Positions 1 through 14,863 of a stretch of DNA of 17,300 bases are shown here, in pieces. The DNA is taken from contig JAGLPV010000004.1 of NCBI GenBank assembly GCA_023137195.1, forward strand, positions 1-17,300, in the 5' to 3' direction. The notes below the pieces were generated by a model. That model did not search any database. It had not been told where the DNA came from and worked only from the letters and a program-made list of their open reading frames with translations. Made by a program: the position numbers and the translations under genes. Source of the stretch: Candidatus Aenigmatarchaeota archaeon. GTDB lineage: Archaea; EX4484-52. Each line of letters opens with the position of its first letter. Position 1 is the first letter of the stretch.

Positions 1-1
1 A

Positions 2-1003
2 GGAAGAAAACAAGATGAAGACTATGCTAAACTGGATTCAGACGGAATTATTTCTCCGGGTCAGCACGTTGACACAGAAGATATATTGGTAGCAAAATCA
101 TCGCCACTTAGATTTGTGGATACTGAAAAAGAAATACATATGGGTATCAGCAACATGCATGATAATTCAGTAAAAACTTCAAGAAATGAACCGGGCACAA
201 TAGAACAGGTTCTTATTACATCAACAGAAGAAGGAGAAGCTCTTGTAAAAGTAGGTGTGAGAGAACACAAAATACCCGAAATAGGAGACAAATTCGCAAC
301 CAGGCACGGGCAGAAAAGTGTCGTAGGTATGATTGTTCCTGAAGAAGATATGCCAACCACGGCAGACGGCAGGACACCAGACATTATATTTAATCCACAC
401 GCAATCCCATCACGTATGACTGTAGGTCAGATAATGGAAATTATTGCCGGCAAATACGGCGCATTGATTGGAGAAAAAATAGATGCAACTGTATTCGGAA
501 GCAAAAAAGAAAAAATAGTAAGCGGACTCGAAAAATTAGGATTCAATAATAACGGGAAAGAAACACTCTATGATGGAAGAACGGGTAAAAAAATAGAATC
601 TGAAATTCTCATGGGCGTCTGCTTTTACCAGCGACTTTACCAGTTGTCATCTCATAAATTATATTCAAGATCAAAAGGACCGGTCACTCTACTTACAAGA
701 CAACCAACAGAAGGAAGAAGTAAGGGCGGCGGTCTAAGACTGGGAGAAATGGAAAAAGACTGTATACTTGCACACGGAGCGGCAATCTCTCTACACGAGA
801 GATTCAGTTGCGACCACCAGAAAGTAAAAATATGTAATAAATGCGGAGTGATTGCAATAATGGACACTGAGAAAGGAAAATATCACTGCCCTATCTGCAT
901 GAAAAACGACATAGGTGAAATAAAAATACCGTCTGCTTTCAAATTATTGATAGATGAAATGATTTCAATGATGATATACCCTAAAATAATAATAAATGAT
1001 TAA
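2..1003 (+). CDS. rpoB: DNA-directed RNA polymerase subunit B (Rpo2), C-terminal part, 5'-truncated by the window edge
   Basis: The frame is open from position 2 (GRKQDEDYAKLDSDGIISPG...), so the track start at 86 is internal. Motifs: GDKFATRHGQK, EDMP..DG.TPDIIFNPHAIPSRMTVGQ, LTRQPTEGRSKGGGLRLGEME and a C-terminal CxxC...CxxC zinc ribbon. Confidence 0.97.
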   Translation, partial: GRKQDEDYAKLDSDGIISPGQHVDTEDILVAKSSPLRFVDTEKEIHMGISNMHDNSVKTSRNEPGTIEQVLITSTEEGEALVKVGVREHKIPEIGDKFATRHGQKSVVGMIVPEEDMPTTADGRTPDIIFNPHAIPSRMTVGQIMEIIAGKYGALIGEKIDATVFGSKKEKIVSGLEKLGFNNNGKETLYDGRTGKKIESEILMGVCFYQRLYQLSSHKLYSRSKGPVTLLTRQPTEGRSKGGGLRLGEMEKDCILAHGAAISLHERFSCDHQKVKICNKCGVIAIMDTEKGKYHCPICMKNDIGEIKIPSAFKLLIDEMISMMIYPKIIIND

Positions 1004-1015
1004 TCAGGTAATAAT

Positions 1016-4000
1016 ATGAGTAAAATAAAAAGAATTGATTTTGGTTTAATAGCTCCTTCGGTTGTAAGAAAACTTGCAGTCATAGAAATTACATCTCCGG
1101 ACGTATATGATACAGACGCACTTCCTGTAGAAGGAGGGATAATGGATTTGCGACTGGGTGTTGTAGATCCCGGCTCAAGATGCAAAACATGCTTTGGCAA
1201 GTTGGATACCTGCACAGGACACTTCGGATATATTACTCTTGCAAAACCCATAATAAATGTACTCTACATCAACTATATCAAAAAAATATTACAGGCAACA
1301 TGCCATAAATGCGGCGCATTGTTACTGGGCGAAAATGAAATCAAAAAAATGGAGGATGATGAAACTGAAAATTTCATAAGCATCAAATTAACAACTACAA
1401 AAAAATGCCCTAAATGCGATGAAGAGGTAGAAAAACTAAAACTCGAAAAACCACATACCTTTAAATACGGGAAAAAAATACTAAATCCTTTGGAAGTAAA
1501 AGAACACATGGATCGAATCAGTGACGAAGATTTAGAAAAAGTAGGATTTAAAGGAGGCAGACCCGAATGGATGGTTCTCACTCTTTTCTTAATACCACCC
1601 ATTTCTTCAAGACCCTCTATCATGCTTGAAAACGGGGACCGAAGTGAAGACGATCTTACTCACAAACTCGTGGACATCATAAGAATCAACGAGAGATTGA
1701 AAGAAAATGTAAATATTGAAACACCATCCTTTATTATTGATGACCTATGGGAACTCCTGCAATACCACGTAACAACTTATTTTAACAATGAACTAACAAA
1801 CATTCCTCCGGCAAGACACAAATCCGGAAGACTACTGAAGACATTATCTTCGCGTCTTAAAACAAAAGAAGGAAGATTCAGACTAAACCTTACAGGAAAA
1901 AGAGTAAATTATTCCTCTCGTGGTGTAATTTCACCGGATCCACAGATACATGTCAATGAAGTAGGCGTACCAATAAGTGTCGCCCAGGAATTGACTATCC
2001 CTGAAGTAGTAAATGAAAAGAACAAGGAATTTCTTTCCGGTCTTATAAAAAATACAGGCAATTATCCTACTGCTCAATATGTCGTCAGCGATGGATTAAG
2101 AAAAAAAGTAATGGAAAGCAACGCAGAATATATCTCAGATGAATTAAAAAATGGCGATATTGTAGAGAGGCAAATGATTGACGGAGATATTGTATTATTT
2201 AACAGGCAACCATCCCTTCACAGGATGTCCATAATGGCACACTATGCAAAAGTCATGCCGGGGCATACATTCAGACTAAATTTATGCGTATGTAAGCCAT
2301 ACAACGCTGACTTTGACGGTGATGAAATGAATCTTCACCTGATGCAGACCGCAGAAGCAAGAGCAGAAGCAAAAAAGCTTATGCTCGTGGAAGCAAACAT
2401 GCGTTCCCCTAAAGCCGGAGCCCCGGTTATGGGATGCGACCAGGACTACATCTCCGGAGCATATATGCTAACCAGAAATAACACAATTCTCACAAAAAAA
2501 GAAACAGCAAAAATATTAGCAGCAGCAGATATTTACATGGAGTTAGACAAAGAAAAATACACAGGTAAAGAACTATTCAGCTTTCTTATCCCGGACAACA
2601 TAGATATAACCTATGAAACAGACATCTGTTCAATCTGTGAATTAAACGAAAAATCAGACTGCAAACACGACTACAATGTCATCATAAAAAAAGGTAAATT
2701 ATTACAGGGTGTAATTGAAAGCAAGGGTCTGGCATCCTTTAAAGGAAGACTACTAAACCAGATAGATATGATGTGCGGACACAAAGCAGCTGTTGATTTT
2801 TTATATGATATTACAAGAGTCATTGTAGAATTTATGCTTCTTAAAGGATTTTCTATATCAATAGACGATGTCTCTATCTCAAAACAGGCAAAACTCAAAA
2901 TAAACAACGAACTAAACGCCATGGGAGAAAAAGCAGAGGAATACATAGATAGTTACCAAAAAGGAAAAATCAAGGGAAAATATGGGCTTAAACCAAAAGA
3001 ACTCCTTGAAGGAAAAGTCATAAAAGAAATAAGTGATACAACTTCAAAGACACAAAAAATCATAGAAGCAGATGCTGGAGAAAACGGAGCAACAATAATG
3101 GCAAGAACCGGAGCAAGAGGAAGCCTACAGAATCTTATATATATGAGTGCTTTCCTTGGTCAGGAACTGGTCCGGGGGAAAAGAATATTCCGTGGATATG
3201 AAGACAGAACTCTATCTTTCTTTGAAAAAAATGATTTAGGATTAACAGCTCATGGCTTTGACAGAAACTCACTAAGTGATGGAATATCCTACACAAACTT
3301 CTTCTTTGAAATTATGAAAGGAAGAGAAGGACTGATGGACTCTTCCCTAAAAACAAAAGTCAGTGGATACATGCAAAGGCGTCTTGTCAATGCACTTCAG
3401 GATTTTATTGTAGATAAAGACAAAAAAGTAGTTGGAGCAGACGGTGAAATTGTACAATTCCTTGCCGGCGAAGATGGAATAGACCCATCAAAAAGTAATT
3501 TTGGAAAACCTTTCGAAAACAGGAAAGATTCTGAATATGAAGCAGGCGAAGCAATAGGAATTGTATCATCACAGTCCATCTCAGAACCGGCAACACAGAC
3601 AACACTAAGATCATACCATGCTGAAGGTCGACTGACACTTACAACAACAAAAGGACTCCCAAGAATTCTGGAACTAATTGACGGAAGAAAAGAGCCGACA
3701 ACACCTGCCATGAACATCTATTTGACAAAAGAATTCGACAATGAAAAAGGAGCATACTTGATTGCATCAAAAATAAAGGAAATCAAGCTCATTGATGTAT
3801 TAAAAGAAGACACAATCAATGCTTTTGACTTAAACGTTGAAATAAAAATAGATAAAAAAATAGCAGACTCGTTCTCCATAAAAACACCGGATATCCTGGA
3901 AGCTATAAAAAAAGCAGACAAAACAATAATTTGCGTTGCAAAAGAGGATAAAATCATAGTGTCCTTCAAAAAAGAAAATAAAACAATACAAGACCTCCAT

Positions 4001-4519
4001 GAATTGAGAGTAAAATTAAGAGACTCTTATGTTGGCGGAATTAAATCCATAAAACAGGTAATTATTGAAGAAGAAGAAAAGACATGGATAATAAAAACAC
4101 TTGGATCCAACTTAAGAAAAGTCCTGAAAATAAAAGGAGTTGATCCCACAAGAACTATTTCAAACAATATTTTCGAAGTTGAAAGGGTTCTCGGAATAGA
4201 GGCAGCAAGACAGAGCATCATCAACGAAATCTGGTCAACTATGAAAGAACAGGGTGTGCAGACAAACATAAGGCACCTTCTCCTTGTAGCTGATTGTATG
4301 ACGGCAACAGGCACAATAAAATCAATTGGAAGAGCAGGAATATCTGGCGCAAAAAATTCTGTTTTGGCGCGTGCAAACTTTGAAGAAACTGTAAAGAACC
4401 TAACAAAAGCAAGTGTATGTGGAGAAGCAGAAAAGTTCGGAGGAATTGTTGAAAACCTAATTGTCGGCTCCGTTGTACCTGTGGGAACTGCTAAAGTCAA
4501 ATTAAAGATGAAAGAATAA
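1016..4519 (+). CDS. rpoA: DNA-directed RNA polymerase largest subunit, fused A'+A'' (Rpo1), 1167 aa
   Basis: Clamp Zn sites (CKTC..C..H, CHKC..CPKC), RSEDDLTHKL, GKRVN, FNRQPSLHRMS, catalytic NADFDGD (2303-2323) and bridge helix GREGL..SGYMQRRL. A''-type motifs follow in the same frame (GEAIG..QSISEP.TQ, GLPR, LGIEAAR, RHLLLVAD, LARANFEET). SD-like AGGT at 1006-1009. Confidence 0.97.
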   Translation: MSKIKRIDFGLIAPSVVRKLAVIEITSPDVYDTDALPVEGGIMDLRLGVVDPGSRCKTCFGKLDTCTGHFGYITLAKPIINVLYINYIKKILQATCHKCGALLLGENEIKKMEDDETENFISIKLTTTKKCPKCDEEVEKLKLEKPHTFKYGKKILNPLEVKEHMDRISDEDLEKVGFKGGRPEWMVLTLFLIPPISSRPSIMLENGDRSEDDLTHKLVDIIRINERLKENVNIETPSFIIDDLWELLQYHVTTYFNNELTNIPPARHKSGRLLKTLSSRLKTKEGRFRLNLTGKRVNYSSRGVISPDPQIHVNEVGVPISVAQELTIPEVVNEKNKEFLSGLIKNTGNYPTAQYVVSDGLRKKVMESNAEYISDELKNGDIVERQMIDGDIVLFNRQPSLHRMSIMAHYAKVMPGHTFRLNLCVCKPYNADFDGDEMNLHLMQTAEARAEAKKLMLVEANMRSPKAGAPVMGCDQDYISGAYMLTRNNTILTKKETAKILAAADIYMELDKEKYTGKELFSFLIPDNIDITYETDICSICELNEKSDCKHDYNVIIKKGKLLQGVIESKGLASFKGRLLNQIDMMCGHKAAVDFLYDITRVIVEFMLLKGFSISIDDVSISKQAKLKINNELNAMGEKAEEYIDSYQKGKIKGKYGLKPKELLEGKVIKEISDTTSKTQKIIEADAGENGATIMARTGARGSLQNLIYMSAFLGQELVRGKRIFRGYEDRTLSFFEKNDLGLTAHGFDRNSLSDGISYTNFFFEIMKGREGLMDSSLKTKVSGYMQRRLVNALQDFIVDKDKKVVGADGEIVQFLAGEDGIDPSKSNFGKPFENRKDSEYEAGEAIGIVSSQSISEPATQTTLRSYHAEGRLTLTTTKGLPRILELIDGRKEPTTPAMNIYLTKEFDNEKGAYLIASKIKEIKLIDVLKEDTINAFDLNVEIKIDKKIADSFSIKTPDILEAIKKADKTIICVAKEDKIIVSFKKENKTIQDLHELRVKLRDSYVGGIKSIKQVIIEEEEKTWIIKTLGSNLRKVLKIKGVDPTRTISNNIFEVERVLGIEAARQSIINEIWSTMKEQGVQTNIRHLLLVADCMTATGTIKSIGRAGISGAKNSVLARANFEETVKNLTKASVCGEAEKFGGIVENLIVGSVVPVGTAKVKLKMKE

Positions 4520-6164: not shown

Positions 6165-6944
6165 ATGGAAAAAAATATATACTTATCAAAAAAAGAACAG
6201 GAAGTTTTCAATGTCTTAAGAGACCTAAAAAACCCTGTTATTGAACACGACCAGCTAAAAGATGTTTTCCAACATAATAAATATTTAAACAAAACAATCA
6301 GTAGTCTTATAAGAAAAAAATATTTTTTAAAAATAAAAAAAGGACTGTATTTGATACAAAAAGAGCCGTCAGATAAAATAAACATAGATGATATATATGC
6401 TATTGCACTGAGAATTAAAAAAGGATATTTTGCTTTTTCAACAGCCCTGCGATTGCATAATCTTATGGAATACGAACCATTTACTATCTACATTGCAACA
6501 AGCCATAAGCCGGAAGAAATCAAAATAAGCAATTACCTGATAAAAGCAGTTAACTACACCAAAATAGGCAATATAACAACCATCAATAAATATCCTGTTT
6601 CAACAAAAGAAAAGACCTTTTTTGACTGCTTCAATAAGCCACAATACTGCGGTGGCTTTTACCAGATAACTAATGCTCTCTACAGCACCAGAATAAACTG
6701 GAAAATCCTTTTAACTTATTTCAAAAAACATGCCTCAAATGTCCTATGCCAGAAAACAGGCTATATTCTGGAGCAGATGAAAGAAAAAACAAATTATGAA
6801 ATTCCCAATTATGTAATCAATTATTTGAAAACAAGAATAAAAAATAAGGTCTATCTAATCGCAGGACAAAAAGGAGGCAAATATAATAAAGAATGGAAAT
6901 TAACGGATAATGACCGAAATTTCTTAAAATGGTATTATGGCTGA
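6165..6944 (+). CDS. abiEi: AbiEi-family type IV antitoxin / transcriptional regulator
   Basis: N-terminal winged-HTH-like segment (ISSLIRKKYFLKIKKGLY), GYFAFSTALRLHNL, and STKEKTFFDC..KPQYCGG. It overlaps the downstream nucleotidyltransferase gene by 8 nt (ATGGCTGA). Confidence 0.85.
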   Translation: MEKNIYLSKKEQEVFNVLRDLKNPVIEHDQLKDVFQHNKYLNKTISSLIRKKYFLKIKKGLYLIQKEPSDKINIDDIYAIALRIKKGYFAFSTALRLHNLMEYEPFTIYIATSHKPEEIKISNYLIKAVNYTKIGNITTINKYPVSTKEKTFFDCFNKPQYCGGFYQITNALYSTRINWKILLTYFKKHASNVLCQKTGYILEQMKEKTNYEIPNYVINYLKTRIKNKVYLIAGQKGGKYNKEWKLTDNDRNFLKWYYG

Positions 6945-7740
6945 TTTAAAATATTTACGATATAAATCCCTGGAAACCGGCTTTGGCTTAAATTACATAT
7001 CTAAAGAAGAAAAACTGTCTTTACTTCTATACGATTTATCGACCCTCTTAACTGACAAATTCATAATAAAAGGCGGAACTGCCCTAAATCGCGCTTATCT
7101 AATAAATAAAGGACTCTCCAGATTTTCTGAAGACATAGACATAGATTATATTGCAGAAAAAAAATTTGATGAAAAAATAAAAGATACAGCCAAAATCATG
7201 GATAAAATCAAATCATTTGATGTCGCAAAATCAAGACTTATGAATAAAACGCTCCGGTACGATTGCTATTACATCAATGAATTAAACCATAAAGACAGGA
7301 TTCAGGTTGAGTTCTATTTAGCCCACGATAAAATTATCTGTCAGCAACAGCCAGGGAAAAAAACATTGAAATCCTCTTTTATAGAATCGCAACTTGCGTA
7401 CTTAAGAGTTTATTCCTTCGAGGATCTATTCGCAAGGAAAATAATTGCCTGTTTAAATAGGATGGAAGGAAAAGACATTTACGACTTGTTTTACTGTTTC
7501 GAAGTTAATTTCGACAAAAAGACATTAAAAAAAGCAATTGTCAAAATAGCAGAATTTTATGGATTGCCCGGCAATGCAAAAGAAATAATAATAAAACTAA
7601 TCCAAAAATTAAATTCTGTTGAAAACCAGTATTATATCGGAACTTCAACAAATCATTTTATCCCGCGAAATTTAAGACCAGACTGGAAAATAATAATTAT
7701 TTCATTAGCAGACAAGCTAAAGTTAAATTTATTATTGTAA
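6937..7740 (+). CDS. abiEii: AbiEii-family (DUF1814) nucleotidyltransferase toxin
   Basis: Signature KGGTAL...RFSEDIDI, then EDLFARKI.A..NR..GKDIYDL. Translationally coupled to the upstream antitoxin gene. Confidence 0.9.
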   Translation: MADLKYLRYKSLETGFGLNYISKEEKLSLLLYDLSTLLTDKFIIKGGTALNRAYLINKGLSRFSEDIDIDYIAEKKFDEKIKDTAKIMDKIKSFDVAKSRLMNKTLRYDCYYINELNHKDRIQVEFYLAHDKIICQQQPGKKTLKSSFIESQLAYLRVYSFEDLFARKIIACLNRMEGKDIYDLFYCFEVNFDKKTLKKAIVKIAEFYGLPGNAKEIIIKLIQKLNSVENQYYIGTSTNHFIPRNLRPDWKIIIISLADKLKLNLLL

Positions 7741-12911: not shown

Positions 12912-14840
12912 TCACTTCTTCTCCTTCTTCTCATCTTCCTTAACTTCCCCGTCAACAACTTTCTCTTCTCCTCCTTTCTTGTCTCCGGACTGCTCAGACG
13001 TCTTTGCCTGTTGTTCTGCTTGTGCCTTCTGCTGTGCCTGCTGGTACATCTTCATTGTCACTTCCTGAACAGCAGTGGAAAGCTCTTCTTTCTTTGCCTT
13101 TATATCATCTGCATTATTGTCTGCTATAGCTTTCTTCAGTGCCTCTTTCTTCTCTTCAATCTCTTTTTTCTTGTCATCTGTCATGATGTCTTTCGGCGCT
13201 TCCTTGATTGTCTTTTCAACAGTATTCACAAGCATCTCTGCCTCGTTTTTTTCCATTATCTCATCGGATTTCTTTTTATCCTCTTCCTCGTGAACTTTTG
13301 CATCATCAACCATCTTTTTAATCTCATCATCTGAAAGACCGCTTGTCTTCTTGATAGTAATACTCTGCTCTTTCCCGGTACCTAAATCTTTCGCACTAAC
13401 CTGTAAAATACCGTTCGAGTCAATGTCAAACTTTACCTCAATCTGTGGTATTCCTCTTTGTGATGGAGGTATCCCGTCAAGAATAAATCTTCCAAGACTT
13501 GTATTGTCTGCTGCCATTTTCCTCTCTCCCTGGAGTACATTAATCTCCACACTCGGCTGGTTGTCCGCAGCAGTAGAAAATATCTGTGTCTTCTTTGAAG
13601 GAATCGTAGTATTTCTCTCAATCAATGGAGTCGCGATACTCCCCAAGGTCTCAATACTCAATGTAAGAGGAGTGACGTCCAGAAGAAGAACATCCTTTAC
13701 ATCTCCGCCAAGTATACCTCCCTGGATTGCCGCACCAAGTGCCACAGCCTCATCAGGATTGATGTTTTTTGACGGTTCTTTTTCAAATATATCTTTTGCA
13801 ACTTTCACAACAGCAGGAACTCTTGTCGAACCTCCCACCAGAAGAACCTTGTCAATATCTGAAGGCTTTAATTTTGCATCATCAAGAGCTTTATGGCATG
13901 GCTTTCTTGCCCTATCAAGTAAATCATCAATCAATTCCTCGAATTTTGCTCTTGTCAAAGTCATATCAATATGCTTTGGACCACTGGCATCTGCTGTAAT
14001 AAACGGAAGGTTTATTGATGTCTGGACAGTTGTGGAAAGCTCTATCTTTGCCTTTTCAGCCGCGTCCTTCACTCTCTGTATAACAGAAGCATCTTTTGAA
14101 ATATCCATACCATTCTGCTTCTTAAATTCATCAAAAATATAATCCATTATTTTCTGGTCAAAATCATCTCCACCAAGATGATTATCTCCGGCAGTAGATT
14201 TTACTTCAAAAACCCCTTCACCCAATTCTAATACCGTAACATCAAATGTTCCTCCACCAAAATCAAACACAAGAACAGTTTTGTTGTCTGTCTTATCAAT
14301 CCCGTACGCAAGAGCAGATGCCGTAGGCTCATTAATTATCCTCTTCACCTCAAGACCTGCAATCTTTCCTGCATCCTTAGTAGCATTTCTCTGTGCATCA
14401 TCAAAATATGCCGGCACAGTAATTACCGCCTCGGTAACCTTAGTTCCAAGATAACTCTCTGCATCTTCCTTCATCTTCTGCAAAATCATTGCGGATATCT
14501 CCTGTGGACTGTATTCTTTTCCTCCTGCTTCAAACGCACAATCCCCGTTCTTCGCAGCCTTAACTTTAAACGGCACACTTTTTATCTCCTTCTGTACAAG
14601 AGAATCATTAAATTTCCTCCCAATATACCTCTTGGTAGAATAAATAGTATTCTCCGGGTTTGTAATTGCCTGCCTTTTTGCCAATACCCCAACAAGACGC
14701 TCTCCTGTCTTTGTAAATCCAACCATAGAAGGTGTTGTTCTTGTACCTTCTTTATTTGGAATAATAACTGCTTTTCCTCCCTCGATAACCGAAACAGCAC
14801 TAAATGTTGTTCCTAAATCAATTCCTATTATTTTTCCCAT
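12912..14840 (-). CDS. dnaK: Molecular chaperone DnaK (Hsp70)
   Basis: [62 protein letters not shown] 14840 is preceded by SD AGGTGA; the track's GTG start at 14849 lies inside that SD. Confidence 0.98.
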
Positions 14841-14863
14841 ATTAATCACCTATTTAATCACTC

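Follow-up and report, generated by a model that had tools for sequence, protein, structure and literature searches.

Can an RNA polymerase that lacks the histidine which, in bacteria, holds the first nucleotide of the transcript be the only RNA polymerase of its organism, and if so, how did the residue come to be lost? The question is raised by the start of a 17,300-nucleotide stretch of archaeal DNA (hereafter, the window), where a preliminary description had noted glutamine in place of the residue equivalent to E. coli β His1237 and had taken it to mean either altered initiation chemistry or the relaxed constraint of a paralogous polymerase.

According to PMC3994528, when initiating nucleotides are bound in a bacterial open complex, the γ-phosphate of the first NTP is bonded by β Gln688 and β His1237 (i.e., His1237 is one of two side chains holding the triphosphate of the transcript's first nucleotide) and the α-phosphate by β Lys1065 and β Lys1073, and during elongation the RNA −1 nucleotide occupies the space of the initiating NTP. 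Because the bacterial residue contacts the γ-phosphate, an effect of a His-to-Gln replacement on initiation chemistry is, by analogy, reasonable to infer. In the openly searchable literature, no paper on natural loss of the β His1237 equivalent was found; Kashlev 1990 and Mustaev 1991 are reportedly the older mutagenesis papers.

The rpoB' gene and its copy number

The first gene of the window lies in a reading frame (frame 2, forward strand) that is open from base 2, ends at the stop codon 1001-1003, and runs off the 5' end (Table 1). Its product matches Rpb2_6 (PF00562, E = 1.6e-85) and then Rpb2_7 (PF04560, E = 1.1e-22), i.e., Rpb2 domain 6 (hybrid binding) followed by Rpb2 domain 7, both above the curated cut-offs. 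The GEME motif is present (LGEMEKD), as is a C-terminal four-cysteine zinc ribbon (CNKC...CPIC in the translation) that aligns with the cysteine pairs of relatives. This is an ordinary archaeal rpoB' orthologue, the histidine column not being a criterion by which curators assign membership. The named proteins closest to it are labelled Nanohalarchaeota, Aenigmarchaeota/Aenigmatarchaeota or DPANN, and its host is a small-genome DPANN archaeon.

Table 1. Positions of the genes, motifs and codons discussed in the text (window coordinates unless stated otherwise; E. coli equivalents by BLASTP)
Feature	Position	Strand	Remarks
rpoB' 5' part	end of contig G000:C14 of the same assembly		profile match
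rpoB' 3' part, C-terminal half of archaeal RNAP subunit B	2..1003	+	333 codons + stop
GDKFATRHGQKSV motif of rpoB'	284..322	+	translation
Lys97	290-292	+	β Lys1065
Lys105	314-316	+	β Lys1073
Ser106 of RHGQKS	317-319	+	AGT; β Gly1074; Gly in relatives
FYQRLYQLSSHKLYSR motif of rpoB'	623..670	+	translation
Gln214	641-643	+	CAG; β His1237
His218	653-655	+	CAT; β Asp1241
Lys219	656-658	+	AAA; β Lys1242
Tyr221	662-664	+	TAT; β His1244
LRLGEMEKD motif of rpoB'	734..760	+	translation
rpoA, A' + A'' fused in one frame	1016..4519	+	1167 codons; all five Rpb1 domains
AbiEii-type nucleotidyltransferase toxin gene and preceding ORF	6165-7740	+	267 aa, Pfam E = 2.6e-25
DnaK/Hsp70	12912-14849	-	found in 28 of 41 related genomes

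The E. coli register was taken from a BLASTP alignment against K-12 RpoB translated from NC_000913, and it agrees with that of phmmer against Thermococcus kodakarensis RpoB (4qiw_B), which sets Gln214 opposite His999. The sixteen codons of the second motif (from TTT to AGA) thus encode FYQRLYQLSSHKLYSR, with glutamine at the β His1237 equivalent as first described, and the changes of RHGQKG to RHGQKS and of LRFGEMERD to LRLGEMEKD are likewise encoded as claimed. Both lysines that correspond to the α-phosphate contacts are retained, and so is, elsewhere in the organism's polymerase, the equivalent of Gln688. An AlphaFold2 model of B' alone, built from a 38-sequence alignment, was poor, with a mean pLDDT of 59.9 and residues 447-533 below 50, and its motif region is too uncertain to be used.

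If the variant came from an additional polymerase, a paralogue or one in decay, on which constraint had relaxed, as had been suggested, the many conserved positions that depart from the textbook consensus would be accounted for, and the assembly (1.42 Mb in 57 contigs), being 85% complete, leaves room for a missing copy. Rpb2_6 indeed matches at two places in this assembly, at the start of the present contig (profile positions 129-373) and at the very end of contig C14 (profile positions 2-119). These are the two parts of one rpoB' gene cut by a contig break: P0281, a 596-aa protein encoded on a 104-kb contig from a separate assembly, agrees with the C14 fragment at 256 of 256 residues and with that of the window at 332 of 332, and it spans the break, where about eight codons are missing between the contig ends (window 1-10; G000:C14:50822); the two ends therefore do not overlap by three bases. 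In P0281 the missing codons lie between ...EDEIG and GRKQ..., and the flanks EDEIG and EDIIG are alike. Rpb2_3 (PF04565, the B'' half) matches once, just upstream on C14, and Rpb1_2 (PF00623) once, in the rpoA of the window; none of these three Pfam profiles revealed a further large-subunit gene in the assembly, which covers 85% of the genome. A single rpoB'', a single rpoB' and a single rpoA leave little of the paralogous polymerase, and the gene order B''-B'-A is canonical and set amid housekeeping genes. The rpoA frame, which encodes the partner subunit in the same enzyme, begins 13 bases after the B' stop and has an intact catalytic NADFDGDEMN motif, present in all 30 rows compared.

The other genes of the window encode the PolD small subunit, ribosomal protein S15, CorA, glutaredoxin, DnaK, alanine dehydrogenase and an AbiEii-type toxin. 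The toxin gene and a 259-aa ORF before it, which overlaps it by 8 bases and gave no Pfam match, sit between the genes for the PolD small subunit and S15, and from their arrangement the two look like a type IV toxin-antitoxin pair. DnaK was not found in the nine genomes searched of families f2, f3 and f5, a patchy distribution that suggests gain or loss within the order. Polymerase architecture varies in the order as well: A' and A'' are fused here and in some members of f6 (1205-1220 aa) and split elsewhere, B is unsplit in family f3 (1092-1106 aa), and B' and A' share one frame of 1426-1453 aa in several relatives (e.g., G007/L018, P0177, P0194).

Rarity and inheritance of the substitutions

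The frequency of each change was read from four comparison sets, which overlap and are not independent. The order set comes from the GTDB order of the window, where 38 of 41 genomes gave 39 matching places, of which 30 loci were read (two from the genus of the window and 28 others); the cluster set is the best 120 of 7505 matches among 90%-identity clusters; the representative set is the best 150 of 14,517 matches among representatives of 50%-identity clusters; and the genome set is the best 80 of at least 595 stretches in GTDB species genomes from many archaeal phyla.

At the first histidine, the 28 order loci outside the genus all have His and both genus loci have Gln. His occupies this position in 118 of the best 120 clusters (the remaining two, both from the genus, having Gln), in 141 of the best 150 representatives (otherwise Y 4, and one each of R, F, Q, W and a gap) and in 78 of the best 80 genome loci (the other two, labelled Woesearchaeota and Parvarchaeota, having Tyr). 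The replacement by Gln is therefore rare and, among the order loci and the nearest clusters, genus-specific, and the motif is not, as it might have been, common across DPANN. The near-universality ascribed to the histidine is thereby borne out, although it is not absolute: eight of the best 150 representatives and two of the best 80 genome loci are without it.

The glycine of RHGQKG behaves similarly. Gly is found in all 28 order loci outside the genus and Ser in both genus loci, and the counts are 118 Gly and 2 Ser in the best 120 clusters, 146 Gly, 3 Ser and 1 His in the best 150 representatives, and 78 Gly and 2 Ser in the best 80 genome loci; the change to Ser is rare. The second histidine, replaced by Tyr in both genus loci, is His in the 28 others of the order, and its tallies are H 117, Y 2 and Q 1 (best 120 clusters), H 134, Q 11, Y 2, N 1, F 1 and one gap (best 150 representatives), and H 55, Y 15, Q 8 and F 2 (best 80 genome loci), where the Tyr rows are mostly Methanobacteriales-labelled loci with DKVYAR. 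Tyr is normal in that group, and the change of the second histidine is ordinary rather than the anomaly it was first held to be.

Nor do the remaining departures set the gene apart. At the Asp1241 equivalent the best 80 genome loci have N 45, D 24, S 6, H 2, G 2 and L 1, and His stands there in 22 of the 28 order loci; LRL, which had been singled out against LRF, is the majority state of the nearest clusters (78 of the best 120). Changes of this Asp to His or Asn, of LRF to LRL, and of Arg to Lys in LRLGEMEKD are typical of the lineage. Of the consensus from which the preliminary description started, then, the first histidine is nearly invariant as stated, and neither the Asp (24 of 80) nor the second His (55 of 80) is. 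It had further been proposed that the displaced histidine of SSHK might replace the lost contact. The comparison does not support this: the same His is present in those 22 order loci, and in 39 of the 120 nearest clusters, together with the first histidine.

An error of sequencing or assembly at codon 214 might be suspected of a gene that sits at a contig end. The 16-residue motif is, however, identical in all four genus sequences (the window, P0281, P0153 and G003/L005), and also in P0154, so that the sister genomes do share the Gln; RHGQKS is likewise carried by the window, P0281, P0153 and G003/L005. P0153 is identical to the window at 318 of 332 residues over the compared C-terminal part, and L005, which is close to P0154 (~88%), at 291 of 333. 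Between the window and G003, a sister species-level genome, synonymous differences affect nine of the 16 motif codons and non-synonymous ones none, and amid the many synonymous differences the key codons (CAG, AGT, CAT, TAT) are the same. With the same Gln, Ser and Tyr also present in P0153 and, from another assembly, in P0281, an artefact is very improbable.

The same comparison bears on the constraint under which the gene now evolves. For the window and G003, pN is 0.069, pS is 0.64 and ω is ~0.05, a rough value since dS is near saturation. An intact B' frame is seen in the window, in P0281, P0153 and P0154 (these three full-length at 596 aa) and, without interruption, at locus L005 of G003. 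Relaxed constraint, taken as a description of the present state, is at odds with a dN/dS of ~0.05 within the genus and with motif differences that are synonymous only. Together with the single-gene matches and canonical gene order described above, and with the fact that most of the 'odd' residues are common to the whole order, these results contradict the paralogous or decaying polymerase, which we consider very improbable.

A long branch and a changed i site

To place the substitutions in the divergence of the lineage, we defined a private change of a family as a column invariant in all other families of the order and different in that family, the family of the window being f1. Private changes number 11 in RpoB' of f1 (of 172 otherwise-invariant columns; 0-7 in other families), 31 in RpoA (of 334; 0-9), 10 in aEF-2 (of 243; 0-6) and none in the PolD small subunit, DP1 (of 71; 0-5). 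Pooled, the polymerase subunits have 42 of 506 and the two controls (aEF-2 and DP1) 10 of 314, a ~2.6-fold difference (Fisher p = 0.003); when RpoB' is set by itself against aEF-2, the difference does not reach significance (p = 0.36). DnaK, which is patchy and was found in only 28 of the 41 genomes, was dropped as a rate control.

Mean identity to the other families gives a similar picture: 55.5% for RpoB' of f1 (others, 60-63%), 54.3% for RpoA (58-61%), 61.5% for aEF-2 (62.5-65.5%) and 48.1% for DP1 (47-53%). In a FastTree of B' (a single gene, with outgroups), f1 is nested within the order and groups with f2 as its sister (support 0.96). Its stem measures 0.51 substitutions per site and its tips lie 0.78 from the order ancestor, from which the other families are 0.37-0.58 away. 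The entire lineage is therefore long-branched, with its RNA polymerase at the upper end of the divergence; an acceleration of the polymerase alone is less likely, the aEF-2 of f1 also being the most divergent in the order. Because f1-private changes are found in RpoA, RpoB' and aEF-2 alike, the loss of the histidine is one of many changes on the stem branch.

Some f1-private changes in RpoA lie in conserved motifs near the active centre (P0002 residues 287-309 and 463-470; window ~1874-1942 and 2402-2425): NFSARTV has become NYSSRGV (Ala301Ser), and SPRFGGP has become SPKAGAP (Arg466Lys, Phe467Ala/Ser, Gly469Ala/Ser).

The explanation that we favour, and consider probable, is that the change from His to Gln was tolerated, became fixed while the stem lineage was evolving fast along a long branch, and is now held in place by purifying selection. 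A single base separates each key codon from its common counterpart (CAY to CAR, GGT to AGT, CAT to TAT), and H→Q and G→S would both have been fixed as single-base substitutions on this stem. Strong purifying selection has since kept the Gln/Ser state in a working enzyme that appears to be the organism's only RNA polymerase. That the site has changed in other lineages, to residues as different as Tyr, Arg, Phe and Trp, speaks for tolerance. The amide of Gln could still hydrogen-bond a phosphate, as the neighbouring β Gln688 does, but could not carry a positive charge, so a modest loss of affinity for the triphosphate of the initiating NTP would be expected, i.e., mildly weaker or altered binding of its 5' triphosphate or, in elongation, of the RNA −1 phosphate; catalysis should be unaffected. 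In an otherwise ordinary orthologue, the effect of the variant is likely to be small.

The ~2.6-fold enrichment in the polymerase, and the position of H→Q and G→S at or next to NTP-touching residues, fit directed remodelling as well as they fit drift, and these observations count against mere tolerance. If the i site had been remodelled adaptively, the two substitutions, along with the active-centre changes in RpoA, would have been selected, possibly for a different initiating substrate (through NTP affinity, or NAD+-type initiators) or for escape from an inhibitor of the i/i+1 site. No inhibitor of archaeal RNA polymerase is known to act at this site, which counts against such an origin. In bacterial RNA polymerase the i-site inhibitor GE23077 is contacted by both β His1237 and β Lys1073 and, according to PMC3994528, ten of the eleven residues that contact it (β His1237 among the eleven) are invariant from bacteria to humans, the varying one being left unspecified; NAD+ as an initiator contacts β D516 and β H1237 (PMC5737558). 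Both substitutions are located at the i site, the genus keeps the new state without exception, and wherever Gln was found (in the genus and in P0088) it is accompanied by Ser, a coincidence that hints, from sequence comparison, at coupling between the two. However, this pairing comes from two lineages, and Ser is also found with His (P0063, P0127, L141, L142); RpoB' taken by itself is not significantly enriched in private changes; and because the aEF-2 of f1 is also the most divergent in the order, much of the signal reflects the lineage-wide long branch. Weighing these points, we regard adaptive remodelling of the i site as unlikely. The bolder proposition that the genus has rebuilt its i-site pocket (Gln at the γ-phosphate contact, Ser beside the α-phosphate lysine, and the private changes in the active-centre motifs of RpoA) so as to change the molecule that starts its transcripts, or to shield the enzyme from an i-site inhibitor of a host, competitor or virus, we hold to be doubtful; if true, it would mean, e.g., that NAD+-type caps are used differently, or that the NTP threshold is raised in keeping with a supply of nucleotides that depends on a host.

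If, as we think probable, the substitution was tolerated, a lineage whose entire transcription depends on a Gln variant, itself under strong purifying selection, amounts to a natural experiment in which the histidine is dispensable in vivo. The combination of Gln and Ser would offer a ready sequence context for testing the role of the histidine in initiating-NTP affinity, abortive initiation and non-canonical capping, and 'invariant' active-centre residues should not be taken as absolute in DPANN archaea.

Comparison with known polymerases

The genome of the window has the gene order B''-B'-A of canonical archaeal RNA polymerase subunit B (Rpo2), and the best match of its B' fragment among solved structures is T. 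kodakarensis RpoB (PDB 4qiw chain B; E = 3.2e-101, residues 6-332). The two share Rpb2_6 and Rpb2_7, the lysines of GDK...RHGQK, GEME and the C-terminal four-cysteine zinc ribbon. T. kodakarensis RpoB has YYQRLHHMVADKMHARS and RHGQKG, whereas its His999, His1006, Asp1003 and Gly890 are Gln, Tyr, His and Ser, respectively, in the window.

Within the order, the RpoB' proteins of families f2-f8 (28 loci) are 55-59% identical to that of the window and have several of its traits, i.e., SHK for xDK (in 22 of 28), the fork-loop NRGDRLNYGSRM(I/V)(V/L)Q and the trigger-loop SISEPATQTTLR; unlike the window, all 28 have kept the first His, the second His and RHGQKG. The oddities of the trigger loop and fork loop are thus common to the whole order. 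Throughout it (L002 1103-1868, at the end of G000:C14, and L005-L033), the near-universal fork-loop/D-loop motif NQSPRNTYQSAMGKQA is replaced by NRGDRLNYGSRM(I/V)(V/L)Q(A/S), in which the basic residue before the Gln (the position of β R687, beside the i-site Gln688) is lost and an Arg stands three residues earlier; neighbouring DPANN clusters have GAKMxGQ at this motif.

Methanobacteriales, a group that includes cultivated methanogens, provide a parallel for the second histidine: their RpoB' (at loci labelled Methanobrevibacter, Methanobacterium and Methanosphaera, themselves marked as MAGs or uncultured) has Tyr there (DKVYAR), like the window, and on this ground Tyr is compatible with normal function; unlike the window, they keep the first His (HHM) and the Gly of RHGQKG. 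For the first histidine, parallels come from DPANN archaea in which it is Tyr: L145 (Woesearchaeota), L153 (Parvarchaeota) and the P0109 cluster (Nanoarchaeota/Aenigmarchaeota). These are not close to the window (45-48% identity), have Tyr rather than Gln, and retain RHGQKG and HAR. The alignments point to independent loss of the β His1237 equivalent elsewhere in small-genome DPANN, with at least two other His-to-Tyr replacements in the sequences surveyed. The only other Gln found here, in the best 150 representatives, is that of P0088, a 1171-aa Rpb2-like metagenomic protein that is closest to eukaryotic Pol II Rpb2 (E = 6e-173) and that, like the window, has RHGQKS, but keeps the second histidine.
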